This document shows positions 28,021-55,785 of a stretch of DNA of 64,000 nt, piece after piece. The stretch lies in assembly GCA_046563655.1 (NCBI GenBank), contig CM102289.1, positions 10,106,001 through 10,170,000 on the forward strand, given 5' to 3'. The notes beneath the pieces are model-generated. The model did not search any database. It was not told the DNA's origin and saw only the letters and a program-made list of their open reading frames with translations. Each line of letters opens with the position of its first letter. The first letter of the stretch is position 1. The DNA is from Yuukianura sp. NJ FZ-2021. Lineage: Eukaryota. Made by a program: the position numbers and the translations under genes.

Positions 28021-28432
28021 ATTAAACCTACGTTGCACCTATGTCTTAAACCTATGTCTACGTTTCACCAGGAAGGTCGATGGACTGGACGTGCAAATTT
28101 CGACTCAGAATACTGCGCACATCTTGAGTGAATGTCAAGGCGTCTAATACTTTAAGAAGGATGAGGAGGGTGGTAGCATCTGTGAACCAGGATTTGACCA
28201 GCATTGCAATGGCTACAGGCACAAACCACTAGTTAGTTAAATAGTCATTTGGACTGAATCAGCTGTTGAGGTTAAGTTAGCCGGGTAAGAGCGATAAGCT
28301 CCTGGTGAGTTGTCCAGAATAAATATGGAGTTGAGACCATTGGAAATGATGGACAGATCCTTCGAGGAGGAACCCAAGTGAAGAGTGCAGTGTTGTCGCT
28401 AGTATCTCGTCTCCAGGCTGGAGAATCTCCAG

Positions 28433-30827
28433 ATTTAGGTTTCGAATCGGTTTCAGTGTCATTGCCTTTGCTTCCTTTTTTTACTTTCTTCACCGCCAGC
28501 ATTCTCAGACTGTTCGCTGTTCTCTCCGTTGTTAGGCCCCGTTTGTGCTGGAATCTCCACTCCCTGTAAAATGAAATGTTTCCAATCTAATTCAAATGCA
28601 AAATCCCGCTTATTTCAAAATTAACCTGAAAATAACTTGCTAAAAGCTGATCCCAATTTAGACAGGGTATCCTCTTCTGGAGCAGCAACTGTTTCCAGTG
28701 TGGCGTTCTTCTTTAAAACAGATTCTACTAGTAGAGTGAGACTGATGATTCCATTTCCGTCCAAATTGTAATGTGCTTTGACGCCTTTCACTTCAATACC
28801 ATCGCCAATATTTTAACACCTTTCAGATTCACTTTGGTAATGTTAGGAGTCTCGGTGGCACTAAAAACAACAAAAATGGAAATCAGCTGATACTTAAATT
28901 AACAAATTAAAAGTAAATCTTACTTGGCTTCGTGTGCTGGAACTTGCAACTCGCCGTAGCTGACGTAGAAACTGAAATCGTCTACATGCTTGTTGAATGT
29001 TCATATCTTCTTCTGTGGATAAGGATTCATGTAAGAAAAGAGAGTTCGGCGAACAATCTTGACTGGCCGGGCGGCTCCATCTTCTCCGTCCAGTTCCCGC
29101 TCAAAATGGACCTGCAAAAGAAACATTTCATTTGATGACTAATTTCAGTGATTTGTTTTAAAAACTTACCAAAATGGGAAAGAGAACATCTTTGGTCAAA
29201 AACGTTTTGACTTTGAATCCAGATCTGAGATCAGCTGCTTTGTAAGCGCTAAACGGCGCCCATCACTGCAGCCTCGTCCGTGTTCAGACTCTTTTCTAAT
29301 CCTCGTTTCAAAACTTCAGTCAGTTTTTCCTGAACTTTTGGAATACACGTTCCAGCTCCAACTAAAATGACTTGGTCAATGAGTTCCCTTGTAATTCCAG
29401 CAGCTGTTAACGCTTGTTCAACTGGATAGTTGACACGTTCGGCGAGATCTGCACATAAACTCAAACTCGGCACGGGAAACGGGAGTTTTGAAGTCTTGCT
29501 CATCCAAATCACCTTCAACCTGTAATCAAAAAGTCAGCACATTTCAAACATCTTTTCAAAGTTTAGTTCTTTCGAAGTGTTTTCATATTTTCGTGGTTGA
29601 ATCATTCAAATGGTGACTTTAGCCTGCATGTAAAAGGAACCGAAGCGCATTCTATTACTTTTTCAGTTTGAACGGAATAACAAGTAAGGAAAAAGTTGCG
29701 GTTCGAAAATACTACAAAAGTAGTAAAAAAAATGAAGTAGAAACGTATAAAAAAAATTTTACCTGAGCGTAGTGATCAGCGTTAGCACTCAAAACGTTTT
29801 TGAGTCCTCCGGCTTCCTTGAACAATTTGGCCAGGGCATGGTGGTTAGTAAAAACATTAGTTTTGGTCTTCTTCAGGTCATTGAAAGCCTTGCCCAGAAA
29901 ATCCCTCAGCCGAAGTTGCATTTCCAGACCACATAGCGAATGATCGTATCTGACACCAAGTGAATCAGCTGATCAACTTATTTCTGAAAACATGATGTTC
30001 GATGTGTAATTTCAAATTCTAGACTTACCCAACACCAAGAATTGTCAACTGTGGATTAGTTTCAACTACTCCCTTCTCCTTACTTTTCGTCATCTGATAG
30101 CTGATTACAGTAGCCACTGTACTGGATGCTCACATGTCATACGAGGTGCTGGGAGTCTCGTTGAAGTCTTTTCGACAAAAAATACAATAGTTCAAAGCAC
30201 CTAACAACATTCAAGTGTATTAAAAACGACATTCCGACGAATAAAATTATCAAAATTCAAATATTTTGTGAGATATTACTGACCGTGGTTGCGTTTATGA
30301 GCTGAAGAACATTGATATCCGCCCATTCGGATGCGTGCAGAACTGCTCGTCTTTCGGCTTGGTTGAAATAAGGTGGAACGGTGATGAATGCTTCCTTGAC
30401 CGGTTGACTAGCAAAATCCTGAGCACAGTCACGCGCTTGGCTTAGAATCATTCCAAGGAGTTCCTCAGATGAATAAAATAATAAAAAGGTTCACTACAAA
30501 CAGATAAATCAGTAATATCATCAATCAGCTGTTATCGATTTAGGTTACGGTACCTGTCATGTTGAAAAAGAACTGTCCCTGAACCGTGAACCGTGGGACA
30601 GTGTCCCACGGTCAGGATCAGGAACTAAGTTGTAGTAAGGAAATCTCTTTTTGATAAAGCTCTACAATTGGATTATCAATCTTCTTTACCAAGAGATCCA
30701 AGAAGTAAACGTAAGCATTGGATGGGAAACGAACTACTACGTTCAGTGCATCGTCTCCAATGAGCCGCTCATTGTCACGGAACGATACGGTAACTGGTGT
30801 TTTCCGCTTTGACTTGGGCACTCCAGG
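28433..30827 (-). pseudogene. HYOU1: Hypoxia up-regulated protein 1 (GRP170, ER Hsp70-like) fragment, copy 1; 5'- and 3'-truncated, introns retained
   Basis: [95 protein letters not shown] and DTLSKLGSAFSKLFSG. No signal-peptide exon; stops and frameshifts. Confidence 0.92.
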
Positions 30828-30912
30828 CTATAATAAAACGTATTAAGAGTCCAGCATCCTCCTCCCCTTGTCCACTTCATCCGCAACTCCTGGTTTCAAA
30901 TTCACAACTTAA

Positions 30913-32138
30913 ATGGGATTTAGAAACTTCAATTAAGATCTCTTACCCGATTTTTGGATTGTGTTTCCTGGGATTCGTTACTGTAGTGCATTTGGGAAAG
31001 AGTTTCTTCACATTCTCTCTAGTCACATCTGCATGAATGTTCGTCACGTAGAGACAAAATGGGTCAATGTGCTCAGGGTTATTCGTCACACGCGTGTCAC
31101 TGTCCAGTTTCTCCTCCACCTTAGAATAAAAACAAAGTTAGATAACTATCAACCCAAGCAAGAGAATAAAGATACTTGGAGGTTTTAGAATGAACTGGAA
31201 ATGTTTACTTACGGTGATATTTGAACCAGCGAATTTGACTTTCTTCAACGCCTCCACTCCCTTCTGGACGTCTGCGTCGTGCTTGAAGATGACGAGAAAC
31301 TGTCTGGGTTCGACAGATTTGGCAACGACTGCAGTTTCGATGCCGCCATGCCACGCCTTCACAATTTGCTCTGTGATGGGAGGGTCATGCACTTTGATCA
31401 AGTACACATGACCACCATGACCAGCTCCTGCTCCGCCTTCATTCCTCGCTCGCAGGCTCCAGCCGGTCTTGGATTAGAACCCAATTTCTAAACACAGTCA
31501 CAAGTTTACCAATTGGGAAGAAAGGTAGTGGAGAAGCGTGGATTACTTACGTTAGTCAAGCGTTGGAATCGGCTCTTCTTCTGGGCTTTCTTGTGAATGT
31601 TCTTACTCTGCGCAGACACTTTATTCAATCCTCCATTGGCTTGATCTTTCTTCTGGAACTTATGCTTTGGCTGTTGCGTGGCTGGAGCTTTCGGTGGCGA
31701 TGTGCCTTTCGTCACTTCCAACTTCTTTGCACCCACTGGTGGAGGAGCCACTTTCTTGTTCAAATTCTGAGGTTGAGTCTTGTGATTGTCATGCTTCTGT
31801 TGCTGTTTCGGAGGATCTCCACCTACAGCCAAAAAACAGTTTTTAGAAAAGTTGATTCCAGATATCTGAAAGCAATTAACTGGTTACCTTTGCCTTGTGG
31901 CTGCTTGGGACTTTGTTGACAACCGAAGGACTTGTTTCCTCCGAATTTATTGGGACGCTGACCTTGAGGTCCTCCAGGGGATTTACCTTGTTGGTTTTTC
32001 GGAAATTTGGATGGGTATTGTTTCCCCCAACGGACTGCAAACACAAAACACAATCTTCAAGTCATAATTAAGTCAAGACTTAAGTAAGGAAGGAAAAATA
32101 GGAAGACTTACCTTTCGTTTCTCGGCTGCCATGATCAT
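30913..32138 (-). pseudogene. 5' fragment of a K/Q-rich RRM (nucleolin-like) gene, copy 1, truncated in an intron after the start of RRM2
   Basis: Exons MAAEKRK, PKNQQGKSPGG, VYLIKVHDPP...FLVIFKHDADVQKGVEALKKVKFAGSNITV and DPFCLYVTNIHADVTRENVKKLFP. Confidence 0.7.
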
Positions 32139-32334
32139 GTTCCCTTCAACTATTCAGTACTTCCTACCAGGAAACAACTTGTGGATTAAGCAATGAAGAG
32201 ACGGTGACCTTTAAGTTGGACGACGTCGAGGTCAACGTAATGACAACTGGATGAGCGACTACTGCTGACAAGGAGGAATTCAAAGTGAATCTGAGAACAG
32301 GGACTTCCACTTCACAGAGGAGTAACAAATAACT

Positions 32335-32510
32335 CCACTGGTCCTATTTATAACTTTTTCTTTTCTGAGTGCGGACCGCCCGTGTAACAAAAATTCCGCC
32401 ATAAAGTCACTATCGGAGGCTAATACTCGGAAAAGAGTAGAAACTGCAGATAGAGTTATCTGATTCTTAGACACTCCTATGTTTTGTCTTGAGACAAAGT
32501 GCGGGAACCT
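32335..32510 (+). promoter_or_regulatory. Shared upstream element, diverged copy D, in a bidirectional intergenic region
   Basis: TATTTAT..GAGTGCGGACC..GGCTAATACTCGGAAAA..GAAACTGC..TTATCTGA..TTAGACACT..CTTGAGACAAAGTGCGGGAAC occur in the same order as in copies A-C. Confidence 0.65.
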
Positions 32511-32793
32511 AATTTAAATAGTAGTTTAAGTTGTTAGATTTAACAAATCTACAATTCACAATTCGATTACAAGAAAACAATTACTAAATTAATTAGTAAT
32601 CAAGAATAATTATCTGTTGCTTTGCTTCAGTTTGAATAACAACTTGTGCAACTGTTGTTATTCACTTAATCTGGACCTGGAGGATTAGTGGAGGAAGGCT
32701 CATCTCCAATCAACTAAACGGTAACAATGTAACTTAAAAGGGAATCAGTTTTTACATGTGTTTTTATATCCTTAGGTCAGTTGGTTGTTAACG

Positions 32794-33306
32794 ATGAGTG
32801 ACTCGGACGACACTGACTTGGAGAACTTACGACAACTGGCCCTCAGCAGTCTCCTCAAGAACAACTTCCCTCCCACTTCAGACGAGTGCTGTGAGTGTTT
32901 CCCTTTCCACTTAGTACTTTTCAATCATCACAGTGTTTCTTTTGTTTTGTATTAGGTCTTTTACCGTTCAAACTCCAACCTCATCTCAATTCAACCGGTG
33001 GAGAACTCCAAAACAAGAATGAGGATGATGGACCCACAGAAGAGGAGGATGACAACGGACAGAGTGACGACAGGAGCAGTGGAAGCGAATATGCGGTTGT
33101 CGGTAATTGTCACAACCAATGAAGCTAAAGGAACTGGACGTTGTTATGAATTTGTCGCTGGCTGTTGTGTTTTTCTAGAAGAGGGACTTTCTGTTTCATA
33201 TGGTGATGTGGACCAAGTGATTGAGGAAGTTGTTGTGTCGGAGGGTGAGAACATGAACATGACAAGTCCAGAGGAAGAAGAGGCTGAAGATGCCGCCGTC
33301 AGTTAG
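32794..33306 (+). pseudogene. 5' exons of an unidentified acidic/low-complexity protein gene (MSDSDDTDLENLRQLALSSL...), copy 1
   Basis: ATG at 32794, GT-AG-bounded exons, ends abruptly at a junction with GOSR2. The ATG is ATT in copy 2. Confidence 0.5.
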
Positions 33307-33365
33307 CCATGCTTCTTTCGACGAGATTCACTTAGGAGTGCATTAGGAGTAACCTAATGTCAGAC

Positions 33366-33760
33366 TGAGAAGATTTGCTCAGTCGTCGATTCACGCCAAA
33401 TGACAACACGAGTATCAACATTGACTATTCCATCCAGCATCACAGTTCTCTCCAGGTTAGCTCATAACATCATAAACTACAAATCCCGCAATGCCAAATA
33501 AAATGTCACTTTACCAGAACGCCCACCGTGGAATCGATGACATGCTGTCGCTGGGGTACCAAATACTTGGGAATTTGCGTGATCAGGAGTCCATCCTGAA
33601 GCAAACGAAGACAAGGATTCTAAACTTTAACAAACACACTGGGACTAACACCGTGATGCAGTTCATAGAACGCCGTGCATACCAAGACAAGTTGGTTCTC
33701 TACGGTGGGATGCTTCTCACACTGACCATCATCTTTTTCATTTGCATGTACTTTCTCTAG
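33366..33760 (+). pseudogene. GOSR2: Golgi SNARE GOSR2/membrin 3' fragment (last 1.5 exons), copy 1
   Basis: EDLLSRRFTPNDNTSINIDYSIQHHSSLQ|NAHRGIDDML..GYQILGNLRDQ..NTVMQFIERRAYQDK plus a C-terminal TM helix. Confidence 0.85.
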
Positions 33761-33968
33761 ACCTTTCTCCCAACCTCATCTGTGATTCATGTCCCTAACT
33801 TCTAAGCTTATTAAATCATATCGTCCGTTTTCCTAAAATACGAGAGGATCTACCGGAGAGAAGAAGTGATTAGAATTAGTTGGATATTTCGTTTTAATCA
33901 AAGATACCTCGCCATGCCATCCACTGAAGTTTAATGGAAACTAGTGTTTAATTAGTAATTGAAGTACA

Positions 33969-34484
33969 CTATGGTCCAGCGGGGGCATGAGGGGCAGAGG
34001 TTCTTATGATGTCAGAGTCACCAGGATCCGTGATGGAGAGGGTGCAGACTCGGAAGTACTTTCCACAGGCAGTCCCTAGCTCAATGTTCTTTCCAGTGTA
34101 GTGGTGGACTCCAGTCTTGGCCAACATTCCGTAGTACTCAATCTCTCACTTTCTAAAGACAGAGGAAGAGAAACACGACAGTCAAGTGCTGCGTCCCAAC
34201 ATCCATCAGCAGCACACCATTTGTAAATTGGGAGAGAGGAGTGACTTACCTGAGTGGCGGAGTGTTGTTGGCGATGATGATGAGTTTGACCTTGTCATGT
34301 CTCAGTCACTTGATGGCCTGTTTGTAGCCTAGCACAACTTTTCCTGACTTCATCACAAGGGCCAGTCGGGAGTTGATGCTCTCCGCACTCTTTTTCTAAA
34401 AAACAATCAAAACATGGTAAATGCACAACTGGAGGGAAGCAGCATGTGACATGGTCTCTTTACCTGTTTTTTTGAAGCAACCAT
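33969..34484 (-). pseudogene. RPL30: 60S ribosomal protein L30, three exons, premature stops, copy 1
   Basis: [78 protein letters not shown]; pyrimidine TCT/TOP tract upstream at ~34505-34516. Confidence 0.93.
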
Positions 34485-34537
34485 TTTGAAGTTTCTGGAT
34501 TTGATGAAAGAAAGGACTTGTTAAGGGACCTGGACAG

Positions 34538-35285
34538 TAGACTGGCCGGGAAAACCAATGTTTTTTTTTCTCGGAACGCAGTCCCCGCTAAAACGATAGT
34601 TATAATATAGAAAAAATTCAGTAAAAATTTTGGCCCGATTGGTCAACGTTTAGGGGTCGCGCAGGGCACTGGAAGTTTTACGTAAATGTGGGTAAGAGGT
34701 CAAATTTTGACTGCGCATGACCTCACCCGAGTAGTACCTCGTTCGAACCGTCTTGACCTACTGATTCCAAAAATATATAAATGTTGACCATTATGACCTC
34801 CCGTTGACCTGCGGACGGGGAGTGGGGGGTTAGGGTGGGGGTGCATGATCAGGGCGCTGCGCATGACCCTACCCGAGTAGCACTTCATTCGAACCGCCTT
34901 GACCTACTGATTCAAAAAATATATAAATGTTGACCCCTATGACCTTCCGTTGACCTGCTGGGTCAAAATGATCATGATTATGCACCCCATCCCAACCCCC
35001 CTCCCCGTCCGGAGGTCAACGGGAGGTCATAATGGTCAACATTTATATATTTTTGGAATCAGTATGTCAAGGCGGTTCGAATGAGGTGCTACTCGGGTGG
35101 GGTCATGCGCAGTCAAAATTTGACCTCTTACCCACATTTACGTAAAACTTCCAGTGCCCTGCGCGACCCCTAAACGTTGACCAATCGGGCCAAAATTTTT
35201 ACTGAATTTTTTCTATATTATAACTATCGTTTTAGCGGGGACTGCGTTCCGAGAAAAAAAAAACTTGGATTTGCCGGCCAGTCTA
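34538..35285. mobile_element. Non-autonomous hAT-type fold-back element (748 bp) with 8-bp TSD
   Basis: TIR TAGACTGGCCGG/CCGGCCAGTCTA, ~300-bp near-perfect inverted arms, TSD CTGGACAG at 34530-34537 and 35286-35293. The empty site is present in copy 2 (~53428-53435). Confidence 0.93.
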
Positions 35286-36669
35286 CTGGACAGCAATAGG
35301 ATACGAATGAAACCATTTGAATGCTTCATGAGTCGGTAGTTACTCGTAAGAATGAATTACTGCTTACCTAGTAAATCGATGACCACCGACCAGTAGACCA
35401 GTAACACCGAAACACGTTTCTTCCTTGTTACTCGCAAAGAACGAAATGCACAAATGATGGACAGAGACCGTATCCTCCTCCCCTTGTCCACTTCATCCGA
35501 AACTCCTGTTTTCAAATTCACAACTTAATTAACTTTATCCTACTTACAAATTCCACTCTAAATCCGACTTTAATTTTGAATAAACATACCTGCACCGTAG
35601 ATGTCCATTGAGGCAGTGAACATGACCAACTCCAACTATTTGGAAACCTACGCAAAGGAATTCATTTGTTATCATGCATGTTGTCTTTTATGCATTAAAA
35701 CTTACGACATCCAGGAAGTAGTCGACGTGTGGTCGTTTGTGGACAAAAAACCGAACTGGATGCCGCTCAATCGTTACTTTGAGTATAAAGTCCGGAGGTG
35801 TCTCTGGCTTAACGCTTTCCCTAACCAAAGTAGAGATTAATGGAGATGACAATTAAAGGTACGAGTTCCAGACATTACCTTTGAATTGCATCGTGACGAG
35901 AATGGATGAGTGTTTAGTCCACATCCAGTGCAAGTACTTTCCTCCGAACAGCTGACAGCCTGTGTTTGGATAAAGGCGACAATGGAATCTCCTCAGACTT
36001 GACTGTCTCATGCTGAATAATCTAAAAACAATGGAAATAGAGGAGTCAATTAAACAATGTGTTTGGATTTGGTTCATTTTGGTGCCTTACCTTTTCTTGC
36101 GTTCTTCTTCATGAAGTAGGTGAGGCAGTTCCAAATCCTGTTAAAAGTATGAGATGTCTAATGGCCACTTCCGCATATTTCCATATCGCAACGTCAATCT
36201 CCAGAAGAAAGGACGATACGTGTGGAAGTCCAATCAAACGTTGGTCCTTGGATGGAGTGTGGATCTGGAAATAGAAGAGTCCAAACTATGAGAATAATCG
36301 ATGACCAAATGACTGGATTCCAGTCAACTACTTTTACTTGACTTTAATTGTGTTGTTCCTTACCTTAATCTTTCACAAATAGTTGATCCAGCTTCAATTC
36401 GTAGTTGTGCTGGTCGTAGATTAACTAAAACTCAGTTTAATTGGTTTAATTAATTAGTTAATCGTGAACTTTGCACTATTAAGGAAGAAATCAACAAAAC
36501 AACTTAAATCTTTAATTTTTAAAAGTAAATCAGCTGGCGCATGCGCGCACTCGGAATAACAAAATTGAAAATTTTGAGTAGAGGTCGGCGCCTCGCACTC
36601 CATAGCCACAAAAACTGCAAAGTACCCTTAATTAAATTAATTACTTGATTACTCTTTAATTAAAGCATA

Positions 36670-37984: not shown

Positions 37985-40900
37985 TGGCAAAATTCCGAAA
38001 ATCCTAAAACACTAAAAACCTAAAGAGCAAAACTCCCAAAATCCGAAAATCCTAAAACACTAAAATCCTAAAGAGCAAAACTCCCAAATTCCGAAAATCC
38101 TAAAACACTAGGGGTCAACCATTTCTTTGCACTTCATCGCAGTTTGAGTTGGCAGTTGGAAATCTGCGAGAGTGCGAGAGTGCGAAAGAGATATTTATAG
38201 AAGCCTCTGAGGGTCGCAGATTTTTGAGTTGGAAAAAGAAAATTGCACTTCTCCTGATTGTCTGTTGGGTACAGGCGGGTACAGGCGAACTCAAAAAATC
38301 TGCGATCGCTCGCACTTTACCAACAGCTGATCAAGTGCGAGAGTGCCACTGCAATTTTCTGCGAGGAAATGGTTGACCCCTACTAAAATCCTAAAGAGCA
38401 AAACTCCCAAAATCCGAAAATCCTAAAACACTAAAATCCTAAAGAGCAAAACTCCCAAAATCCGAAAATCCTAAAACACTAAAAACCTAAAAAGCAAAAT
38501 TCCCAAAATCCGAAAATCCTAAAACACTAAAAACCTAAAAAGCAAAATTCCCAAAATCCGAAAATCCTAAAACACTAAAAACCTAAAGAGCAAAATTCCC
38601 AAAATCCGAAAATATTAAAACACTAAAAACCTAAAGAGCAAAATTCCCAAAATCCGAAAATCCTAAAACACTAAAAACCTAAAGAGCAAAATTCGAAAAT
38701 CCGAAAATCCTAAAACACTAAAACCCTAAACTACAAAATTCCCAAAATCCGAAAACCCTAAAGTCCGAAAACACTAAAATCCTAAACCGCAAAATCCCTA
38801 AAATCCGAAAATCCTTGAGTCCTAAAACACTAAAATCCTAAACTACAAGATTCCCAAAATTCCCAAAATCCGAAAATCCTAAAACACTAAAAACCTAAAG
38901 AGCAAAATTCCCAAAATCCGAAAATCCTAAAACACTAAAAACCTAAAGAGCAAAATTCCCAAAATCCGAAAATCCTAAAACACTAAAAACCTAAAGAGCA
39001 AAATTCCCAAAATCCGAAAATCCTAAAACACTAAAAACCTAAAGAGCAAAATTCCCAAAATCCGAAAATCCTAAAACACTAAAAACCTAAAGAGCAAAAT
39101 TCCCAAAATCCGAAAATCCTAAAACACTAAAAACCTAAAGAGCAAAATTCCCAAAATCCGAAAATCCTAAAACACTAAAAACCTAAAGAGCAAAATTCCC
39201 AAAATCCGAAAATCCTAAAACACTAAAAACCTAAAGAGCAAAATTCCCAAAATCCGAAAATCCTAAAACACTAAAAACCTAAAGAGCAAAATTCCCAAAA
39301 TCCGAAAATCCTAAAACACTAAAAACCTAAAGAGCAAAATTCCCAAAATCCGAAAATCCTAAAACACTAAAAACCTAAAGAGCAAAATTCCCAAAATCCG
39401 AAAATCCTAAAACACGAAGGAGCAAAATTCCCAAAATCCGAAAATCCTAAAACACTAAAAACCTAAAGAGCAAAATTCCCAAAATCCGAAAATCCTAAAA
39501 CACTAAAAACCTAAAGAGCAAAATTCCCAAAATCCGAAAATCCTAAAACACTAAAAACCTAAAGAGCAAAATTCCCAAAATCCGAAAATCCTAAAACACT
39601 AAAAACCTAAAGAGCAAAATTCCCAAAATCCGAAAATCCTAAAACACAAAAATCCTAAAGAGCAAAACTCCCAAAATCCGAAAATCCTAAAACACGAAGA
39701 AGCAAAATTCCCAAAATCCGAAAATCCTAAAACACTAAAAACCTAAAGAGCAAAATTCCCAAAATCCGAAAATCCTAAAACACTAAAAACCTAAAGAGCA
39801 AAATTCCCAAAATCCGAAAATCCTAAAACACTAAAAACCTAAAGAGCAAAATTCCCAAAATCCGAAAATCCTAAAACACTAAAAACCTAAAGAGCAAAAT
39901 TCCCAAAATCCGAAAATCCTAAAACACTAAAAACCTAAAGAGCAAAATTCCCAAAATCCGAAAATCCTAAAACACTAAAAACCTAAAGAGCAAAATTCCC
40001 AAAATCCGAAAATCCTAAAACACTAAAAACCTAAAGAGCAAAATTCCCAAAATCCGAAAATCCTAAAACACTAAAAACCTAAAGAGCAAAATTCCCAAAA
40101 TCCGAAAATCCTAAAACACTAAAAACCTAAAGAGCAAAATTCCCAAAATCCGAAAATCCTAAAACACTAAAAACCTAAAGAGCAAAATTCCCAAAATCCG
40201 AAAATCCTAAAACACTAAAAACCTAAAGAGCAAAATTCCCAAAATCCGAAAATCCTAAAACACGAAGGAGCAAAATTCTCAAAATTCGAAAATCCTAAAA
40301 CACTAAAAATCTAAAGAGCAAAATTCCCAAAATCCGAAAATCCTAAAACACTAAAAACCTAAAGAGCAAAATTCCCAAAATCCGAAAATCCTAAAACACT
40401 AAAAACCTAAAGAGCAAAATTCCCAAAATCCGAAAATCCTAAAACACTAAAAACCTAAAGAGCAAAATTCCCAAAATCCGAAAATCCTAAAACACGAAGG
40501 AGCAAAATTCTCAAAATTCGAAAATCCTAAAACACTAAAAATCTAAAGAGCAAAATTCCCAAAATCCGAAAATCCTAAAACACTAAAAACCTAAAGAGCA
40601 AAATTCCCAAAATCCGGAAATCCTAAAACACTAAAAACCTAAAGAGCAAAATTCCCAAAATCCGAAATTCCTAAAACACGAAGAAGCAAAATTCCCAAAA
40701 TCCGAAAATCCTAAAACACTAAAAACCTAAAGAGCAAAACTCCCAAAATCCGAAATTCCTAAAACACGAAGAAGCAAAATTCCCAAAATCCGAAATTCCT
40801 AAAACACGAAGAAGCAAAATTCCCAAAATCCGAAAATCCTAAAACACTAAAAACCTAAAAAGCAAAATTCCCAAAATCCGAAAATCCTAAAACACTAAAA

Positions 40901-43900
40901 ACCTAAAGAGCAAAATTCCCAAAATCCGAAAATCCTAAAACACTAAAAACCTAAAGAGCAAAATTCCCAAAATCCGAAAATCCTAAAACACGAAGGAGCA
41001 AAATTCTCAAAATTCGAAAATCCTAAAACACTAAAAATCTAAAGAGCAAAATTCCCAAAATCCGAAAATCCTAAAACACTAAAAACCTAAAGAGCAAAAT
41101 TCCCAAAATCCGGAAATCCTAAAACACTAAAAACCTAAAGAGCAAAATTCCCAAAATCCGAAAATCCTAAAACACTAAAAACCTAAAGAGCAAAATTCCC
41201 AAAATCCGAAAATCCTAAAACACTAAAAACCTAAAGAGCAAAATTCCCAAAATCCGAAAATCCTAAAACACTAAAAACCTAAAGAGCAAAATTCCCAAAA
41301 TCCGAAAATCCTAAAACACTAAAAACCTAAAGAGCAAAATTCCCAAAATCCGAAAATCCTAAAACACTAAAAACCTAAAGAGCAAAATTCCCAAAATCCG
41401 AAAATCCTAAAACACGAAGGAGCAAAATTCTCAAAATTCGAAAATCCTAAAACACTAAAAATCTAAAGAGCAAAATTCCCAAAATCCGAAAATCCTAAAA
41501 CACTAAAAACCTAAAGAGCAAAATTCCCAAAATCCGAAAATCCTAAAACACTAAAAACCTAAAGAGCAAAATTCCCAAAATCCGAAAATCCTAAAACACT
41601 AAAAACCTAAAGAGCAAAATTCCCAAAATCCGAAAATCCTAAAACACTAAAAACCTAAAGAGCAAAATTCCCAAAATCCGAAAATCCTAAAACACTAAAA
41701 ACCTAAAGAGCAAAACTTCCAAAATCCGAAAATCCTAAAACACTAAAATCCTAAAGAGCAAAACTCCCAAATTCCGAAAATCCTAAAACACTAAAATCCT
41801 AAAGAGCAAAACTCCCAAAATCCGAAAATCCTAAAACACAAAAATCCTAAAGAGCAAAACTCCCAAAATCCGAAAATCCTAAAACACGAAGAAGCAAAAT
41901 TCCCAAAATCCGAAAATCCTAAAACACTAAAAACCTAAAGAGCAAAATTCCCAAAATCCGAAAATCCTAAAACACTAAAAACCTAAAGAGCAAAATTCCC
42001 AAAATCCGAAAATCCTAAAACACTAAAAACCTAAAGAGCAAAATTCCCAAAATCCGAAAATCCTAAAACACTAAAAACCTAAAGAGCAAAATTCCCAAAA
42101 TCCGAAAATCCTAAAACACTAAAAACCTAAAGAGCAAAATTCCCAAAATCCGAAAATCCTAAAACACTAAAAACCTAAAGAGCAAAATTCCCAAAATCCG
42201 AAAATCCTAAAACACTAAAAACCTAAAGAGCAAAATTCCCAAAATCCGAAAATCCTAAAACACGAAGGAGCAAAATTCTCAAAATTCGAAAATCCTAAAA
42301 CACTAAAAATCTAAAGAGCAAAATTCCCAAAATCCGAAAATCCTAAAACACTAAAAACCTAAAGAGCAAAATTCCCAAAATCCGAAAATCCTAAAACACT
42401 AAAAACCTAAAGAGCAAAATTCCCAAAATCCGAAAATCCTAAAACACTAAAAACCTAAAGAGCAAAACTCCCAAAATCCGAAAATCCTAAAACACTAAAA
42501 TCCTAAAGAGCAAAACTCCCAAAATCCGAAATTCCTAAAACACGAAGAAGCAAAATTCCCAAAATCCGAAAATCCTAAAACACTAAAAACCTAAAAAGCA
42601 AAATTCCCAAAATCCGAAAATCCTAAAACACTAAAAACCTAAAGAGCAAAATTCCCAAAATCCGAAAATCCTAAAACACTAAAAACCTAAAGAGCAAAAT
42701 TCCCAAAATCCGAAAATCCTAAAACACTAAAAACCTAAAGAGCAAAATTCCCAAAATCCGAAAATCCTAAAACACGAAGGAGCAAAATTCTCAAAATTCG
42801 AAAATCCTAAAACACTAAAAATCTAAAGAGCAAAATTCCCAAAATCCGAAAATCCTAAAACACTAAAAACCTAAAGAGCAAAATTCCCAAAATCCGAAAA
42901 TCCTAAAACACTAAAAACCTAAAGAGCAAAATTCCCAAAATCCGAAAATCCTAAAACACGAAGGAGCAAAATTCTCAAAATTCGAAAATCCTAAAACACT
43001 AAAAATCTAAAGAGCAAAATTCCCAAAATCCGAAAATCCTAAAACACTAAAAACCTAAAGAGCAAAATTCCCAAAATCCGAAAATCCTAAAACACTAAAA
43101 ACCTAAAGAGCAAAATTCCCAAAATCCGAAAATCCTAAAACACTAAAAACCTAAAGAGCAAAATTCCCAAAATCCGAAAATCCTAAAACACTAAAAACCT
43201 AAAGAGCAAAATTCCCAAAATCCGAAAATCCTAAAACACGAAGGAGCAAAATTCTCAAAATTCGAAAATCCTAAAACACTAAAAATCTAAAGAGCAAAAT
43301 TCCCAAAATCCGAAAATCCTAAAACACAAAAAACCTAAAGAGCAAAATTCCCAAAATCCGAAAATCCTAAAACACTAAAAACCTAAAGAGCAAAATTCCC
43401 AAAATCCGAAAATCCTAAAACACGAAGGAGCAAAATTCTCAAAATTCGAAAATCCTAAAACACTAAAAATCTAAAGAGCAAAATTCCCAAAATCCGAAAA
43501 TCCTAAAACACTAAAAACCTAAAGAGCAAAATTCCCAAAATCCGAAAATCCTAAAACACTAAAAACCTAAAGAGCAAAATTCCCAAAATCCGAAAATCCT
43601 AAAACACGAAGGAGCAAAACTCCCAAAATCCGAAAATCCTAAAACACTAAAATCCTAAAGAGCAAAACTCCCAAAATCCGAAAATCCTAAAACACGAAGA
43701 AGCAAAATTCCCAAAATCCGAAAATCCTAAAACACTAAAAACCTAAAAAGCAAAATTCCCAAAATCCGAAAATCCTAAAACACTAAAAACCTAAAGAGCA
43801 AAATTCCCAAAATCCGAAAATCCTAAAACACTAAAAACCTAAAGAGCAAAATTCCCAAAATTCTAAAGTCCTAAAACACTAAAAACCTAAAGAGCAAAAT

Positions 43901-43910
43901 TCCCAAAACC
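37985..43910. repeat. 48-bp satellite (six 8-bp subunits), ~120 units, copy 1
   Basis: Unit AAAATCCG AAAATCCT AAAACACT AAAAACCT AAAGAGCA AAATTCCC; period 48 at 38881/38929; 40-bp variants lack one 8-mer. Confidence 0.97.
38109..38382. mobile_element. 274-bp MITE inserted near the start of the 48-bp satellite, copy 1
   Basis: 17-bp perfect TIR TAGGGGTCAACCATTTC / GAAATGGTTGACCCCTA; TSD not resolvable within the satellite. Confidence 0.88.
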
Positions 43911-45759: not shown

Positions 45760-46680
45760 GCGGGATTCCAAAATGGAAGTCAATTTGGGATTCCAAAATG
45801 GAAGTCGAAATGGGACTCCTAAACGGGTTAGTTTCAACTCAAAATGGATGTCAATATGGGACTCCAAAATGGACGTCCAATTAGACTCCCAAAGAGTTGT
45901 TTAAACTCAAAATGGGATTCCAAAGTGGAACTTAATTTGGGATTCCAAAATGGAAGTCAAAATGGGACTCCTAAAGGGGTTAGTTTCAACTCAAAATGGA
46001 AGTCAAAATGGGACTCCAAAATGGAAGTCAAAATGGGACTCCTAAAGGGGTTAGTTTCAACTCAAAATGGAAGTCAAAATGGGACTCCAAAATGGAAGCG
46101 ACTCCAAACCCCTCAGTTTTAATTCAAAATTTAAGTCCATGCAATCGATACACAGTTGGTTTGCACCGACTGTATATGGCAAGAAAGAGCAAGGAAAAAT
46201 ACGTGGCTGGAGTGGGACTCGAACCCACATCATTACCATTCCGGGGTAACCGCTCTCACCATTGAGCTACCCAGACACAGTACTTTCCTGCTCTGAAATT
46301 CTGCCTTTTAACCTGAACAGTCCAAGTACGACAGCCCTTCATTTCAACTCAAAATGGAACTCCAAATGGACTCCTAAATTCTCTCCTAATTTCAACCCAA
46401 AATGAAAGTCAAAATGGGACTTCAAAATGGACGTCCAAAAGGGACTTCAAAATGGAAGTCGAAAATGGACTCCCAAAGCACTGTCCCAATTTCAACTCCA
46501 AATGGAATCCCAAAGTCGACTCCCAATGCCCTCTCCTAATTTTACTCCTAAGTGGAAGTAGAAATTGGACTCCGAAAGCACTGTCCCAATTTCAAACAAA
46601 ATGAAGTCCAAATGGGACTTCAAAACGGAAGTCCAAATGGGACTCCAAACGCCTCAGTTTCAACTCAAAATGGAAGTCCA
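45760..46680. repeat. AAAATGGGACTCC / AAAATGGAAGTC degenerate tandem repeat, copy 2
   Basis: Homologous to 26920-27790. Confidence 0.85.
46140..46319 (-). mobile_element. 180-bp solo-LTR-like element containing a tRNA-like Pol III cassette (46204-46276)
   Basis: TG...CA termini, 5-bp TSD GTCCA at 46135-46139 and 46320-46324, absent at the homologous site (~27065-27080). Internal cloverleaf-like sequence with A and B boxes followed by TTTTT. Confidence 0.85.
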
Positions 46681-47354
46681 AATAGGTGAAAATAAAGTTT
46701 TTGGAAAAAGTTTATCTGTTAAGGTGATTACATACTGTGAGAATAAATTTTTTGGAAAAAAGTTTTTCTTTTAAGGTAATTATACATACTGTAACGTAAG
46801 AATTAAATTTTTGAAAAAGTTTCTCTCTTAAGGTGATTACATACTCTGAGAATTATATTTTTGAAAAAGATTTCTTTTAAGGTGATTACATACTATGAGA
46901 ATAAAATTTTTGAAAATTTTTCTTTCTTAAGGTGACTACATTCTATGAGTATTAAACCTACGTTGCACCTATGTTTTAAACTTATGTCTACGTTTCACCA
47001 CGAAGGTCGATGGACGTGCAGATTTCGACTCAGAATACTGCGTACATCTTGAGTGAATGTCGAGGCGTCTAATACTTTGAGGATGAGGAGGGCGGTAGCA
47101 TCTGTGAACCAGGATTTGATCAGCATTGCATTGGCTACAGGCACAGACCACTAGTTAGTTAAATAGTCATTTGGACTGAATCAGCTCTTGAGGTTAAGTT
47201 AGCCGGGTAAGAGCGATAAGCTTCTGGTGAGTTGTCCAGAATAAATATGGAGTTGAGACCATTGGAAATGATGGACAGATCCTTCGAGAAGGAACCCAAG
47301 TGAAGAGTGCAGTGTTGTCGCCAGTATCTCGTCTCCAGGCTGGAGAATCTCCAG

Positions 47355-49730
47355 ATTTAGGTTTCGAATCGGTTTCAGTGTCATTGTCTTTGCTTCCTTC
47401 CTCTTTTTTACTTTCTTCACCGCCAGCATTCTCAGACTGTTCGCTGTTCTCTCCGTTTGTGCTGGAATATCATCTCCACTCCCTGTAAAATGAAATGTTT
47501 CCATCACAATCTAATTCAAATGCTAAATCCCGCTTATTTCAAAATTAACCTGAAAATAACTTGCTAAAAGCTGATCCCAATTTAGACAGGGTATCCTCTT
47601 CTGGAGAAGCAACTGTTTCCACGGTTGCATTCTTCTGAAAAACAGATTCTACTAGTAGAGTGAGACTGATGATTCCATTTTCGTCCAAATTGTAATGGGC
47701 TTTGACGCCTTTCACTTCAATACCATCGCCAATATTTTTAACACCTTTCAGATTCACTTTGGTAATGGTAGGAGTCTCGGTGGCACTAAAAACAACAAAA
47801 ATGGAAATCAGCTGATACTTAAATTAACAAATTAAAAGTAAATCTTACTTGGCTTGGTGTGCTGGAACTTGCAACTCGCCGTAGCTGACGTAGAAACTGA
47901 AATCGTCTACATGCTTGTTGAATGTTCAGATCTTCTTCTGTGGATAAGGATTCATGTAAGAAAAGAGAGTTCGGCGAACAGTCTTGGATGGCCGGGCGGC
48001 TCCATTTTCTCCGTCCAGTTCCCGCTCAAAATCGACCTGCAAAAGAAACATTTCATTATTTGATGACTAATTTGAGCGATTTGTTTTAAAAACTTACCAA
48101 AATGGGAAAGAGAACAGCATTTTTGGTCAAAAACTTTTTCACTTTGAATCCAGAGCTGAGATCAGTTGCTTTGTAAACGGCGCCCATCACTGCAGCCTCG
48201 TCCGTGTTCTGACTCTTTCCTAATTCTCGTTTCAAAACTTCAGTCAGTTTTTCCTGGACTTTTGGAATACGCGTTCCAGCTCCAACTAAAATGACTTGGT
48301 CAATGAGGTCCCTTGTAATTCCAGCGGCTGTTAACGCTTGTTCAACTGGATAGTTGACACGTTCGACCAGATCTTCACATAAACTCTCAAACTCGGCACG
48401 GGAAACGGAAGTTTTGAAGTCTTGTTCATCCAAAAGACCTTCAACCTGTAATCAAAAAGTCAGCACATTTCAAACATCGTTTTCAAAATTTAGTTCTTTC
48501 GAAGTGTTTTCATATTTTCATGGTTGAATCATTTAAATGGTGACTTCCCTGCATGTAACATGAACCGAAGCGCATTCTTTTACATTTGAAGTTTGAACGG
48601 AATAACAAGGAAAAAGTTGCCATTCGAAAATACTTCAAAAGTAGTAAAAAAAATGAAGTAGAAACGTAGAAAAAAATTTTTACCTGAGCGTAGTGATCAG
48701 CGTTAGCACTCAAAACGTTTTTGAGTCCGCCGGTTTCCTTGAACAATTTGGCCAGGGTACGGCGGCTAGTAAAAACATTAGTTTCGGTCTTCTTCAGGTC
48801 ATTGAAAGCCTTGCCCAGAAAATCCCTCAGCCGAAGTTGCATTTCCAGACCACCCAGTGTATGATCGTATCTGAAACCAAGTGAATCAGCTGATCAACTT
48901 ATTTCTGAAAACATGATGTTCGCAGTGTAATTTCAAATTCTAGACTTACCCAACACCAAGAATTGTCAACTGTGGATTAGTTTCAACTACTCCCTTCTCC
49001 TTAGTTTTCGTCATCTGATAGCTGATTACAGTAGCAACTGTAGTGGATGCTCCCATGTCATACAAGAGAAGGTGCTGAGGAGTCTCGTTGAAATCTTTTC
49101 AACAAAAAATACAATAGTTCAAAGCACCTAACAACATTCAAGTGTATTAAAAACGCCATTCCGACGAATAAAATTATCAAAATTCAAATATTTTGTGAGA
49201 GATTGATTACTGACCGTGGTTGCGTTTATGAACTGAAGAACATTGATATCCGCCAATTCGGATGCGTGCAGAACTGCTTGTCTGTCGGCTTGGTTGAAAT
49301 AAGGTGGAACGGTGATGAGTGCTTCCATGACCGGTTGACTAGAAAACTCCTGAGCATAGTCACGCGCTTGGCTTAGAATCATTCCAAGGAGTTCCTCAGA
49401 TGAATAAAAAGGTTCACTACAAACAGATAAATCAGTAATTAATAATTAATCATCAATCAGCTGTTATCGATTTAGGTTACGGCACCTGTCATGTTGAAAA
49501 AGAACTGTCCCACAGTCAGGATCAGGAACTAAGTTGTAGTAAGGAAATCTCTTTTGATAAAGCTCTACAATTGGATTATCAATCTTCTTTACCAAGAGTT
49601 CCAAGAAGTAAAGGTAAGCATTGGATGGGAAACGAACTGCTACGTTCAGTGCATCTTCTCCAATGAGCCGCTCATTGTCACGGAACGATACGGCAACTGG
49701 TGTTTTCCGCTTTGACTTGGGCACTCCAGG
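47355..49730 (-). pseudogene. HYOU1: HYOU1 fragment, copy 2
   Basis: Same exons as copy 1, e.g. MDEQDFKTSVSRAEFESLCEDLVERV..VGAGTRIPKVQEKL..NTDEAAVMGAVYKA. Confidence 0.92.
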
Positions 49731-49815
49731 CTATAATAAAACGTATTAAGAGTCCAGCATCCTCCTCCCCTTGTCCACTTCATCCGCAACTCCTGTTTTC
49801 AAATTCACAACTTAA

Positions 49816-51046
49816 ATGGGATTTGGAAACTTCAATTAAGATCTCTTACCCGATTTTTGGATTGTGTTTCCTGGGATTCGTTACTGTAGTGCATTTGGAA
49901 AAGAGTTTCTTCACATCCTCTCTAGTCACATCGGCATGAATGTTCGTCACGTAGAGACAAAATGGGTCAATGTGCTCAGGGTTATTCGTCACACGCGTGT
50001 CACTGTCCAGTTTCTCCTCCACCTTAGAATAAAAACAAAGCTAGATAACTATCAACCCAAGCAAGAGAATAAAGATACTTGGAGGTTTTAGAATGAACTG
50101 GAAATGTTTAAACTTACGGTGATATTTGAACCAGCGAATTTGACTTTCTTCAAGGCTTCCACTCCCTTCTTGACGTCTGCGTCGTGCTTGAAGATGACGA
50201 GAAACTGTCTGGGCTCGACAGATTTGGCAAAGACTGCAATTTCGATGCCCCCATGCCACGCCTTCACAATTTGCTGTGATGGGAGGGTCATGCACTTTGA
50301 TCAAGTACACACGACCACCATGACCCAGCTCCTGCTCCGCCTTCATTCCTCGCTCGCAGGCTCCAGCCGGTCTTGGATTAGAACCCAATTTCTAAACACA
50401 GTCACAAGTTTACCAATTGGGAAGAAAGGTAGTGGAAAAGCGTGGATTACTTACGCTAGTCAAGCGTTGGAATCGGCCCTTCGTCTGGGCTTTCTTGTGA
50501 ATGTTCTTACTCTGCGCAGAAACTTTATTCAATCCTCCCTTGGCTTGATCTTTCTTCTGGAACTTGTGCTTTGGCTGTTGCGTGGCTGGAGCTTTCGGTG
50601 GCGAAGTGCCTTTCGTCACTTCCACCTTCTTTGCACCCACTGGTGGAGGAGCCACTTTCTTGTTCAAATTCTGAGGTTGAGTCTTCTGATTGTCATGCTT
50701 CTGTTCCTGTTTCGGAGGATCTCCACCTTACAGCCAAAAAACAGTTTAGAAAAGTTGATTCCAGATATCTGAAAGTAATTAACTGGTTTGGTTACCTTTG
50801 CATTGTGGCTGCTTGGTACTTTGTTGACTACCGAAGGACTTGTTTCCTCCGAATTTATTGGGACGCTGACCTTGAAGTCCTCCAGGGGATTTACCTTGTT
50901 GGTTTTTGGGAAATTTGGATGGGTATTGTTTCCCCCAACGGACTGCAAACACAAAACACAATCTTCAAGTCATAATTAAGTCAAGACTTAAGTAAGGAAG
51001 GAAAAATAGGAAAACTTACCTTTCGTTTCTCGGCTGCCATGATCAT
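49816..51046 (-). pseudogene. RRM gene 5' fragment, copy 2
   Basis: Homologous to 30913-32138 with additional indels. Confidence 0.7.
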
Positions 51047-51242
51047 GTTCCCTTCAACTATTCTGTACTTCCTACCAGGAAACAACTTGTGGATTAAGCA
51101 ATGAACAGACGGTGACCTTTAAGTTGGACGACGTCGAGGTCAACGTAATGACAACTGGATGAGCGACTACTGCTGACAAGGAGGAATTCAAAGTGAATCT
51201 GAGAACAGGGACTTCCACTTCACAGAGGAGTAACAAGTAACT

Positions 51243-51420
51243 CCACTGGTCTTATTTATAACTTTTTCTTTTCTGAGTGCGGACCACGCGTGTAACAAAA
51301 ATTCCGCCATAAAGTCACTATCGGAGGCTAATACTCGGAAAAGAGTAGAAACTGCAGATAGAGTTATCTGATTCTTAGACACTCCTATGTTTTGTACTTG
51401 ACACAAAGTGCGGGAACCTA
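51243..51420 (+). promoter_or_regulatory. Shared upstream element, copy D' (duplicate of D)
   Basis: Near-identical to 32335-32510. Confidence 0.65.
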
Positions 51421-51692
51421 ATTTAAATAGTTTAAGTTGTTAGATTTAACAAATCTACAATTCGATTACAAGAAAACAATTACTAAATTAATTAGTAATG
51501 AAGAATAATTATCTGTTGCTTTGCTTCAGTTTGAATAACAACTTGTGCAACTGTTGTTATTCACTTGATCTGGACCTGGAGGATTAGTGGAGGAAGACTC
51601 GTCTCCAATCAACTAAACGGTAACAATGTAACTTAAAAGGGAATCAGTTTTTACATGTGTTTTTATATCCTTAGGTCAATTGGTTGTTAGCG

Positions 51693-52202
51693 ATTAGTGA
51701 CTCGGACGACACTGACTTGGAGAACTTACAACTGGCCCTCAGCAGTCTCCTCAAGAACAACTTCCCACTTCAGACGAGTGAGTGCTGTGAGTGTTTCCCT
51801 GTCCACTTAGTACTTTTCAATCATCATAGTGTTTCGTTTGTTTTATATTAGGTCTTTTACCGTTCAACCTCCAACCTCATCTCAATTGAACCGGTGGAGA
51901 ACTCCAAAAGAAGAATGAGGATGATGGACCCACAGTAGAGGAAGATGACAACGGACAGAGTGACGACAGGAGCAGTGGAAGCGAATATGCGGTTGTCGGT
52001 AATTGTCACAACCAATGAAGCTAAAGGAACTGGACGTTGTTATGAATTTGTCGCTGACTGTTGTGTTTTTCTAGAAGAGGGACTTTCTGTTTCATGTGGT
52101 GATGTGGACCAAGTGATTGAGGAAGTTGTTGTGTCGGAGGGTGAGAACATGAACATGACAAGTCCAGAGGAAGAAGAGGCTGAAGATGCCGCCGTCAGTT
52201 AG
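51693..52202 (+). pseudogene. Unidentified gene 5' fragment, copy 2
   Basis: Homologous to 32794-33306. Confidence 0.5.
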
Positions 52203-52261
52203 CCATGCTTCTTTCGACGAGATTCACTTAGGAGTGCATTAGGAGTAACCTAATGTCAGAC

Positions 52262-52659
52262 CGAGACGATTTGCTCAGTCGTCGATTCACGCCACATGAC
52301 AACACGAGTATCAACATTGACTATTCCATCCAGCATCATAGTTCTCTCCAGGTTAGCTCATAACATCATAAACTACAAATCCCGCAATGCCAAATAAAAT
52401 GTCACTTTACCAGAACGCCCACCGTGGAATCGATGACATGCTGTCGCAGGGATACCAAATACTTGGGAATTTGCGTGATCAGGAGTCCATCCTGAAGCAA
52501 ACGAAGACAAGGATTCTAAACTTTACAAACACACTGGGACTATCTAACACCGTGATGCAGTTCATAGAACGCCGTGCATACCAAGACAAGTTTGTTCTCT
52601 ACGGTGAGATGCTTCTCACACTAACCATCATCTTTTTCATTTACATGTACTTTCTCTAG
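52262..52659 (+). pseudogene. GOSR2: GOSR2/membrin 3' fragment, copy 2
   Basis: NAHRGIDDMLSQGYQILGNLRDQESILKQTKTRILNFTNTLGLSNTVMQFIERRAYQDKF plus TM. Confidence 0.87.
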
Positions 52660-52867
52660 ACCTTTCTCCCAACTTCATCTGTGATTCGTCTCCCTAACTT
52701 CTAAGCTTATTAAATCATATCGTCCGTTTTCCTAAAATACGAGAGGATCTACCGGAGAGAAGAAGTGATTAGAATTAGTTGGATATTTCGTTTTAATCAA
52801 AGATACCTCGCCATGCCATCCACTGAAGTTTAATGGAAACTAGTGTTTAATTAGTAATTGAAGTACA

Positions 52868-53382
<515 letters not shown>

Positions 53383-55550: not shown

Positions 55551-55785
55551 ACGTTTAGCTCTATTGTCTTAACGCTATTGTGAAAAAAACGCTTTTTTCG
55601 TCGGAAAAACGTTTCGGAGATGGCCGAATTTGGTGTCAAAAGATCGGAAATTTAAAATAGTATCGATTTTGACACCAAAATCTCGCCTATCGGTGGATTT
55701 TGGAGTTTTTTTTTGCAAAAAACATGATTTTTTGGCAAAAAAACACAACATAAATACAAGTTTTGATCCCTATCTTCTCAGTGTT

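Follow-up and report, generated by a model that had tools for sequence, protein, structure and literature searches.

How could a single exon of a phosphatase gene come to hold pieces of five other genes with their introns? The question is raised by a window of 64,000 nucleotides (the whole stretch of DNA that was analysed) from Yuukianura sp. NJ FZ-2021, taken from contig CM102289.1 of assembly GCA_046563655.1, positions 10,106,001 to 10,170,000; positions given below are counted from the first letter of this window. It contains a copy of the CTDNEP1 (Dullard) gene. This copy is a pseudogene, broken by intron-bearing pieces of five other genes and then copied as a block. The patchwork, which lies in repeat-rich DNA, is probably of the DNA-repair type; it is not a working gene in the course of being split. 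Nor is this the working CTDNEP1 locus: it belongs, as a decayed member, to a CTDNEP1-like family with several copies, and lies between satellites.

Reading of the minus strand between 27800 and 36500 reveals a CTDNEP1/Dullard-type gene with short GT...AG introns, running from about 36184 to 28058 and broken inside one exon. Its 5' part (35472..36184, minus strand) comprises exons 1-4 and the start of exon 5 and ends ...DEVDKGRR, with GGAGGATAC ending at 35470. Its 3' part (28058..28416, minus strand) holds the remainder of exon 5, read as LETRY*RQHC..., together with the final exon as far as the stop. Both parts were recognized in a Pfam search run on single stop-to-stop exons (28 selected open reading frames, ORFs, in 28061-38373), in which the NIF phosphatase family matches 35691-35852 (profile 10-51) and 28240-28398 (profile 87-129). 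For the resumed exon, a PDB search gave the solved human CTDNEP1 chain 8ujl_A, aligned over its residues 112-161 (E 7.8e-16).

Two inserts lie between these parts. Insert 1 (35469-30913, minus strand) carries a complete RPL30, the 3' half of GOSR2, the 5' end of an acidic gene and the 5' end of an RRM-like gene. It starts with sequence from upstream of RPL30 (35294..35469, minus strand, without Pfam match), which the alignment of the two copies described below shows to be continuous with 34537-34485 once a foldback element is removed. The RPL30 pseudogene (33969..34484, minus strand; Pfam Ribosomal_L7Ae at 33972-34145) retains its whole coding region in three exons, with both introns kept. Tail to tail with it lies the 3' half of a GOSR2-like SNARE gene (33364..33760, plus strand), recognized by reading and by the Pfam family V-SNARE_C (E 6.2e-10 at 33476-33757); its two exons are still parted by their intron, and an in-frame TGA can be read at an exon start. 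Next comes the 5' end of a gene that we can only call acidic (32795..33305, plus strand, three exons, by reading), for which no Pfam family was obtained even at E 10. Facing it head to head is a lysine-rich, weakly RRM-like gene, of which the 5' end is present (30913..32138, minus strand, by reading); this piece keeps its introns and stops inside one of them. The sequence-only reading had called this last piece the 5' end of an RRM gene: the piece is indeed present, but its RRM identity is weak, since the RRM_1 match (E 0.023) falls below the cut-off, RRM-type clusters of the Atlas scoring 0.82-0.90.

Insert 2 (28417..30849, minus strand) is a fragment of a HYOU1 pseudogene, running from the last 22 nucleotides of an intron to the middle of an exon with its introns kept. 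Residues 58-594 of a 962-residue homologue, P0001, could be placed on it by tblastn in nine pieces, parted by intron-sized gaps and frame breaks. The Pfam HSP70 family is found in four of the exons (30621-30827, 30260-30490, 29715-29972 and 29252-29533; profile 28-368). In the homologue search that yielded P0001, the best named relatives of the queried exon, at 58-68% identity, came from insects, an ostracod and a springtail; the genome thus looks arthropod-like, with no close named relative among the matches of that search.

The limits of these pieces are sharp at four of the five junctions, all read on the minus strand. CTDNEP1 is left at J1 (35470/35469, ...GGAGGATAC/GGTCTC; in longer form ...GGGGAGGAGGATAC/GGTCTCTGTCC). 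The acidic gene and the GOSR2 piece meet at J2, placed by reading somewhere in 33290-33363. Insert 1 ends at J3 (30913/30912, ...AATCCCAT/TTAAGTTG; longer form ...CTAAATCCCAT/TTAAGTTGTG), where a second copy of the CTDNEP1 target begins (30850..30912, minus strand, established by BLASTN and alignment), consisting of the intron tail and ...DEVDKGRRML. This second copy is left at J4 (30850/30849, ...GATGCTGGA/CTCTTAAT; longer form ...GGATGCTGGA/CTCTTAATACG), and CTDNEP1 resumes after insert 2 at J5 (28417/28416, ...CTCCAGC/CTGGAGACG; longer form ...GATTCTCCAGC/CTGGAGACGAG). Each insert is thus flanked by a duplication of the site, namely a direct repeat of 57-59 bp for insert 1 and of 5 bp for insert 2. 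By BLASTN, 30846-30912 matches 35463-35528 over 67 nucleotides (92.5%, E 8e-20); the core of the repeat, TTAAG...GGAGGAT, is 57 nucleotides long with 2 mismatches in the first unit and precedes both J1 and J4. The self repeat of 57 bp claimed earlier (35472-35528 against 30856-30912) was therefore confirmed by both methods. The second target copy reaches 6 nucleotides beyond the first (GCTGGA), CTGGA stands on either side of insert 2, and the CTDNEP1 exon restarts at CTGGAG. This hexamer or its complement CTCCAG occurs 13 times in 28000-36500 (8.5 kb), 3 of the 13 sites lying within 17 bp at J5, where the cluster (28411-28432) forms the short palindrome CTGGAG-ATT-CTCCAG-C-CTGGAG. The general anatomy proposed from the sequence, an exon split twice, with captured pieces, a repeat and a resumption at CTGGAG, is thus borne out by reading and by Pfam.

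If both inserts are foreign to the exon, their removal should rebuild CTDNEP1, as the sequence-only reading also held. In the second repeat unit described below, ...DEVDKGRRML followed by ETRYWRQHC... is indeed gap-free and collinear with the human 8ujl_A stretch ...SILKRRYYRQHC. The uninterrupted exon could also be found as such in public sequencing data. Logan contigs of four (X1-X4) of the five runs listed, from two studies, X3 bearing a second organism label and coming from the other study, were aligned to the window at a likeness of at least 80%; the piece-level listing covers 30 of 1875 contig pieces, and such contigs show presence, not absence, their depth not being a copy number. Joints between 28415/28416/28417 and 35470/35472/35473, skipping 7054-7056 bases, are present in 4/4 runs. 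They come in three readings, ...GGATAC/TGGAG in X1, X3 and X4 and two variants in X2, with shorter sides of 26-47 letters. The uninterrupted form of CTDNEP1 exon 5 is thus real, and there is more than one copy or allele of it. Word-based protein searches for the uninterrupted exon or for full-length relatives gave 0 candidates at near lengths, and of 6 candidates at longer lengths none scored; such searches are weak for a query of 65 amino acids, and the blanks mean little. The ORF of 21 amino acids in the target repeat had no PDB match, being too short a query.

The same mosaic occurs a second time in the window. A second repeat unit (46397..57993, minus strand) shows the same pieces and junctions without the foldback element: 27507/27817-34537 matches 46397/46744-53435 at 94.9%, and 35286-39842 matches 53428-57993 at 97.1%. 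The unit is about 19 kb long, and its two head-to-tail copies lie about 18.9 kb apart at 93-100% identity, which is patchy (0.934-1.000 per 500 bp). The alignment shows all junctions to be identical in both, so that the earlier suggestion of a mosaic later duplicated as a unit holds for the two units seen here.

This second unit also bears on the idea that reads of CTDNEP1, RPL30, HYOU1 and other genes were wrongly joined during assembly. The region is certainly repeat-rich and, of the 30 contig pieces listed among 1875, only one bridges a junction by at least 31 letters on both sides, none spanning the mosaic; the pieces nearest J5 (28387-28756) and J3 (30894-31634) have 30 and 19 letters on their short side. 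A bridge missing from these 30 pieces does not count against the other junctions. However, the two units, 2-6% apart, share every junction to the base, which all but rules out a chimeric assembly. The bridging piece, record 11 of X2 (30611-30892, 0 differences), crosses J4 at 30849/30850 by 43 letters. Contigs of X3, which belong to another study and bear another organism label, match 29150-30033 (884 bp) and 31026-32251 (1226 bp) of the mosaic with 0 differences, and one of them joins 32251 back to 28823, thereby enclosing two junctions if the X3 unit is laid out as in the window. Moreover, chimeric reads of live genes would not be expected to show the decay of these pseudogenes. An artefact of assembly is thus close to refuted.

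This decay also bears on the picture of a split gene drawn from the sequence. The CTDNEP1 copy and its cargo carry stops and frameshifts and are pseudogenes, and that picture claims more than the evidence supports. In unit 1, the CTDNEP1 start ATG has become ATA, exon 1 has lost 4 nucleotides, and three stop codons are found (TAA in LDVD*TLIHS, TAG in VSK*LEL and TAG in ETRY*RQHC). Unit 2 has a deletion of 1 nucleotide in exon 3 and a broken last exon, the exons of its 5' part being otherwise open. No open frame passes through the NIF phosphatase domain in either unit, given an interruption of 7 kb in both in addition to these lesions. In RPL30, the TGA of exon 2 is common to both units and that of exon 3 private to unit 1. 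At the positions of the three CTDNEP1 stops and of the RPL30 exon 3 stop, unit 2 reads GAA, TGG, TGG and CGA. A variant genetic code reading through in-frame TAA, TGA and TAG was accordingly rejected, most stops being private to one unit with a sense codon in the sister. Some lesions being shared (both inserts and the RPL30 exon 2 TGA) and others private, decay took place both before and after the duplication of the unit. The differences between units comprise 173 transitions and 171 transversions, 63/344 in a CpG context, an unremarkable spectrum that led us to discard decay driven by methylation or resembling repeat-induced point mutation.

Two local differences between the units were noticed. 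Within the HYOU1 fragment, unit 1 has an insertion of 28 bp relative to unit 2 (30580-30607), inside a short palindrome (...CGTGGGACACTGTCCCACG...). CTDNEP1 exon 2 (35876-36021 against about 54016-54161) differs at 19/145 nucleotides, compared with about 2% over most of the unit, and the unit 2 version keeps a conserved motif of 14 residues intact. Judged from the sequences, this divergence suggests exchange with other members of the family, possibly by gene conversion from a copy that is live or has decayed less.

What carried the foreign pieces into the exon? Processed pseudogenes and other retrocopies are marked by lost introns and a poly-A tail. Here, GT...AG introns are present in RPL30, GOSR2, HYOU1, the RRM-like gene, the acidic gene and CTDNEP1, and the insert ends show no poly-A. 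All cargo being intron-bearing, RNA intermediates are excluded, and capture took place at the DNA level, as first proposed.

Capture by a DNA transposon is another candidate. Fragments of several loci with their introns are typical cargo of Helitrons and Pack-MULEs, and the chimeric array found here resembles them in this respect; a duplication of 5 bp flanks insert 2, and small DNA elements are active in this genome, as shown by the foldback element with its 8-bp target-site duplication present in one unit only. The inserts could then be the cargo of non-canonical elements (Helitron- or Helentron-like, Pack-type with eroded ends, or a larger composite) that landed in CTDNEP1. Such elements nevertheless have defining ends. 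Helitrons are recognized by a 5'-TC and a 3'-CTRR end, a 3' hairpin and insertion between A and T without target-site duplication, and Pack-type transposons (Pack-MULE, hAT, CACTA) by terminal inverted repeats (TIRs) and a target-site duplication of fixed length. On the minus strand the inserts end as ACGGTC/GGTCTC...CCCAT and CTCTTAAT...CTCCAGC; neither strand fits a Helitron, and by reading no 5'-TC/3'-CTRR ends and no A^T target were seen at the insert ends, so that Helitron capture was rejected. Five candidate elements were considered for TIRs, namely the two inserts singly, the pair of them as one, and insert 1 cut into its two halves; inverted alignment of their 150-bp ends detected none at any of the five boundary pairs, with scores of 15-17 within the shuffled range (medians 14-16, 95th percentiles 19-21), and a Pack-type element was discarded in turn. 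The absence of TIRs, poly-A and Helitron termini asserted by the sequence-only reading thus withstood both the shuffled controls and a direct reading. Furthermore, we know of no transposase that produces a target duplication of 57 bp. No transposase or helicase domain appeared among the ORFs of the unit that were scanned, and no transposase-like Pfam family was found in the 28 selected ORFs (28061-38373), in 145 ORFs of at least 62 amino acids overlapping 1-22800 or at least 55 amino acids overlapping 43900-46400 (23 for the latter), or in 96 ORFs of at least 36 amino acids in 15.9-22.1 kb. The insert ends recur nowhere else in the 64 kb except in the sister unit. Transposon capture in any of these forms is therefore held to be very unlikely.

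The reading that we favour, at slightly better than even confidence, is an old insertion, independent of transposons, made by repair or replication into a non-functional CTDNEP1 duplicate and followed by amplification, whether in one event or several. At the core of the unit would lie a copy of the CTDNEP1 gene body, duplicated at the DNA level and non-functional. One of its exons would have received, with no transposon involved, unspliced genomic copies from at least three other loci, namely RPL30 with the GOSR2 3' half, the acidic gene 5' end with the RRM-like gene 5' end, and the middle of HYOU1. Most likely they were added during the repair of a break or the restart of replication, with switches of template. 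The strand being synthesized would have left CTDNEP1 after ...GGATAC to copy ectopic templates and re-entered it 57-59 bp behind its exit point, thereby creating the direct repeat. After a second exit following GCTGGA, 2.4 kb of HYOU1 would have been copied before re-entry 5 bp back, at CTGGAG. The donor genes would have stayed in place. The product would then have decayed, been amplified within the repeat unit, gained a foldback element in one unit and exchanged sequence with its relatives. Template switching, its course in one event or several, and any copy number beyond two are what we infer and not what we observe, and the single break supposed in the sequence-only reading claims more than the evidence supports.

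The contigs offer some sequences that may touch the donors and the recipient of such an insertion. Record 3 of X1 (1077 letters) has its HYOU1 match confined to positions from 28426 upward (48 other letters and 17 gaps over 387); a further 505 letters, on the side of the 28417 breakpoint, are unplaced on the window. It would fit a diverged (about 87%) HYOU1 copy unjoined to CTDNEP1, probably a parent. In contigs like this one, from 3/4 runs, the 60 nucleotides 28813-28872 are replaced by 75 other letters. A contig of X3 leaves the window sequence at 28062, beside the CTDNEP1 stop, other contigs leaving it at 36346-36437 and at 36697. This exit at 28062 hints that the CTDNEP1 piece may itself be a captured duplicate of the size of a gene body and not the home locus.

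Several points weigh against this repair-type insertion. Microhomology of 2-15 nucleotides between successive templates is the hallmark of template switching; over the five junctions, what can be seen in the mosaic itself amounts to the 5 nucleotides CTGGA shared at insert 2 and the CTGGAG/CTCCAG cluster at J5. The return junction displays none, unless the HYOU1 parent continues with CTGGA. The 5-bp duplication at insert 2 would also fit a filled-in staggered break or an unrecognised transposon. A joint 28416>30856 would speak for two events rather than one if it stands for a form that has insert 1 and lacks HYOU1; it occurs in X1 only (1/4 runs, depth 80, side of 30 letters, 9 unexplained letters in between) and is not relied on here. 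Depths of contigs are not copy numbers. Finally, two adjacent CTDNEP1 copies, each cut short, could overlap so as to give the 57-bp repeat.

This last point leads to a different history, in which a patch of RPL30, GOSR2, acidic gene and RRM-like sequence lay between two adjacent CTDNEP1 pseudogene copies. Deletion of the 3' part of one and the 5' part of the other would have left stumps overlapping by 57 bp, HYOU1 having entered on its own. CTDNEP1-like sequence is indeed multi-copy, with at least three uninterrupted variants, and stands in a tandem array. The two 57-bp copies differ at 2/57 positions, the first (A) having ATA like the uninterrupted contigs and the second (B) ATG, a pattern expected of two different family members. 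However, the present spacer between CTDNEP1 copies consists of satellites and unique DNA, with no RPL30, GOSR2 or RRM sequence, and the model would require two deletions whose remnants overlap neatly and in register inside a single exon. Such a deletion-fusion seems to us quite unlikely.

A further history stays closer to the repair-type insertion. It would compress the events into a single chromoanasynthesis-like germline repair event that joined intron-bearing pieces of at least three unlinked housekeeping loci into a CTDNEP1 copy and seeded a new macrosatellite, whose sub-units expand independently, some copies maybe being refreshed by gene conversion from live parents, as the exon 2 differences might indicate. 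The X3 contig joining 32251 back to 28823 is relevant here (back 3429; depth 1048, side 226): it is a head-to-tail repeat of a 3.4-kb sub-unit made of HYOU1, the target repeat and the RRM-like piece. The binned depth of X3 is 1040-1430 over the sub-unit, compared with 52-76 over 32380-34119 and 420-690 over the CTDNEP1 5' part; it is about 15-20x that of the neighbouring GOSR2/RPL30 segment and about 100x that of the diverged HYOU1 contig. Under the second organism label, part of the mosaic thus seems to have turned into a tandem repeat of its own. For the three runs under the first label no such joint was reported, from contigs that show presence, not absence. We regard this history, taken as a whole, as unlikely.

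The foldback element of unit 1 (34538..35293, 756 bp including one target copy) deserves a separate description, since it entered the mosaic later. It resembles a miniature inverted-repeat transposable element, with arms of about 317 bp (inverted self-match of 34535-34851 with 35288-34975 at 95%), and is flanked by the 8-bp target duplication CTGTCCAG. The 756-bp gap and the empty site can be read directly in unit 2, and its presence in unit 1 only makes it a later insertion than the mosaic. The foreign DNA once estimated at about 4.5 kb is thus real as an insert, but about a sixth of it, these 756 bp, belongs to this later arrival. The joint of the empty site, 34529>35286, is found in 4/4 runs at 5-10x the depth of foldback-specific bins. 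Since the window holds one filled and one empty unit, this excess suggests further repeat units beyond the two seen here, with the reservation on depth already made. The public contigs also contain other internal variants of the foldback, as well as loose ends at 35034/35102, which points to a multi-copy, recently active family.

The surroundings of the mosaic are those of a boundary, since it sits where genes give way to satellites. Left of 21.6 kb, ordinary-looking multi-exon genes are found (RabGAP-TBC, zf-C2HC with MBT, TFIIE-beta and cyclophilin). Rightward follow a 49-bp satellite, a 25/50/71-bp minisatellite, unit 1 and a 48-bp satellite. Beyond this lie 1.85 kb of unique DNA, matched nowhere else in the window, then a second stretch of the minisatellite, unit 2 and a return of the 48-bp satellite. 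The latter, detected by Tandem Repeats Finder and by its composition skew, parts the two units (38382..43908, 117.6 copies, higher order of 232 bp) and also fills 56520-64000, up to the window end. It is strongly strand-skewed, with an A- and C-rich strand, an 8-bp CTAAAATC sub-period and CCTAA motifs. The 49-bp satellite (22842-26917, 83 copies, 98% identity) is unrelated to it. Upstream of the CTDNEP1 pseudogene, both units have a 172-bp tandem repeat (3.3 copies, 82-83%; 36711-37270 and 54849-55408), and the divergence of public contigs from the window at 36697 adjoins it.

A few other features complete this description. A tRNA-like sequence lies in the minisatellite flank of unit 2 (46203-46276, minus strand; Rfam tRNA 51.3 bits; Ser-GGA of 74 nucleotides by ARAGORN); it is the only match of the Rfam and tRNA scans, lies outside the mosaic, and no counterpart was detected beside unit 1. 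The observed/expected ratio of CpG is 0.54 in the gene region (1-21600) versus 0.81 in the mosaic unit (27400-38500), and their methylation histories may differ. The gene region also contains short dispersed repeats at 78-88% identity, one direct (13576-13826 and 18539-18790) and one inverted (17386-17514 and 18787-18662), which are probably small interspersed elements.

With what known systems can this locus be compared? By analogy, it behaves as would a templated complex insertion that later underwent segmental amplification. Gu et al. 2016 (PMC5120786) describe replicative complex insertions in which templates are switched iteratively, several donor segments are involved and small copy gains mark the site of insertion. 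The likeness to such insertions (fork stalling and template switching or microhomology-mediated break-induced replication, chromoanasynthesis-like) lies in several unlinked segments at one site, small site duplications and the lack of transposon ends; here too, the recipient CTDNEP1 exists uninterrupted, and the diverged HYOU1 contig may be a retained donor. Those cases are, in contrast, recent ones from human germline or tumours with sequenced parental junctions, whereas the present mosaic is old, fixed, decayed and amplified.

Patchworks of segmental duplications in subtelomeres and pericentromeres, and the ampliconic arrays of gene fragments on Y chromosomes, offer a second comparison; a literature search on gene-fragment arrays surfaced only general satellite and telomere-to-telomere papers. 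As in those regions, unlinked intron-bearing pseudogene fragments lie beside satellites and are amplified in tandem, with copy number that seems to differ between close relatives and patchy identity between copies. The present case is far smaller, with fragments of 0.4-2.4 kb in a 19-kb unit, in a compact, short-intron, arthropod-like genome. The resemblance to Helitron and Pack-MULE arrays, for its part, stops at the cargo, as the defining termini are absent and the 57-bp repeat is not a transposase target-site duplication.

No working gene is affected by the mosaic. Gene finders would otherwise call chimeric CTDNEP1/HYOU1/RPL30 models from it, and annotators should therefore mask the block. 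If its five junctions and the 57-bp and 5-bp re-entry duplications were compared with the parental loci, the locus would provide a clean natural record of a multi-template insertion. Such insertions are mostly known from human disease and tumours; here one would have been preserved and amplified in an arthropod-like genome. The locus also displays genic DNA turning into a tandem repeat, with copy number and unit length that seem to differ between two close relatives and, should a single event indeed have seeded a macrosatellite, it would be a datable case of the birth of a satellite from genic DNA.

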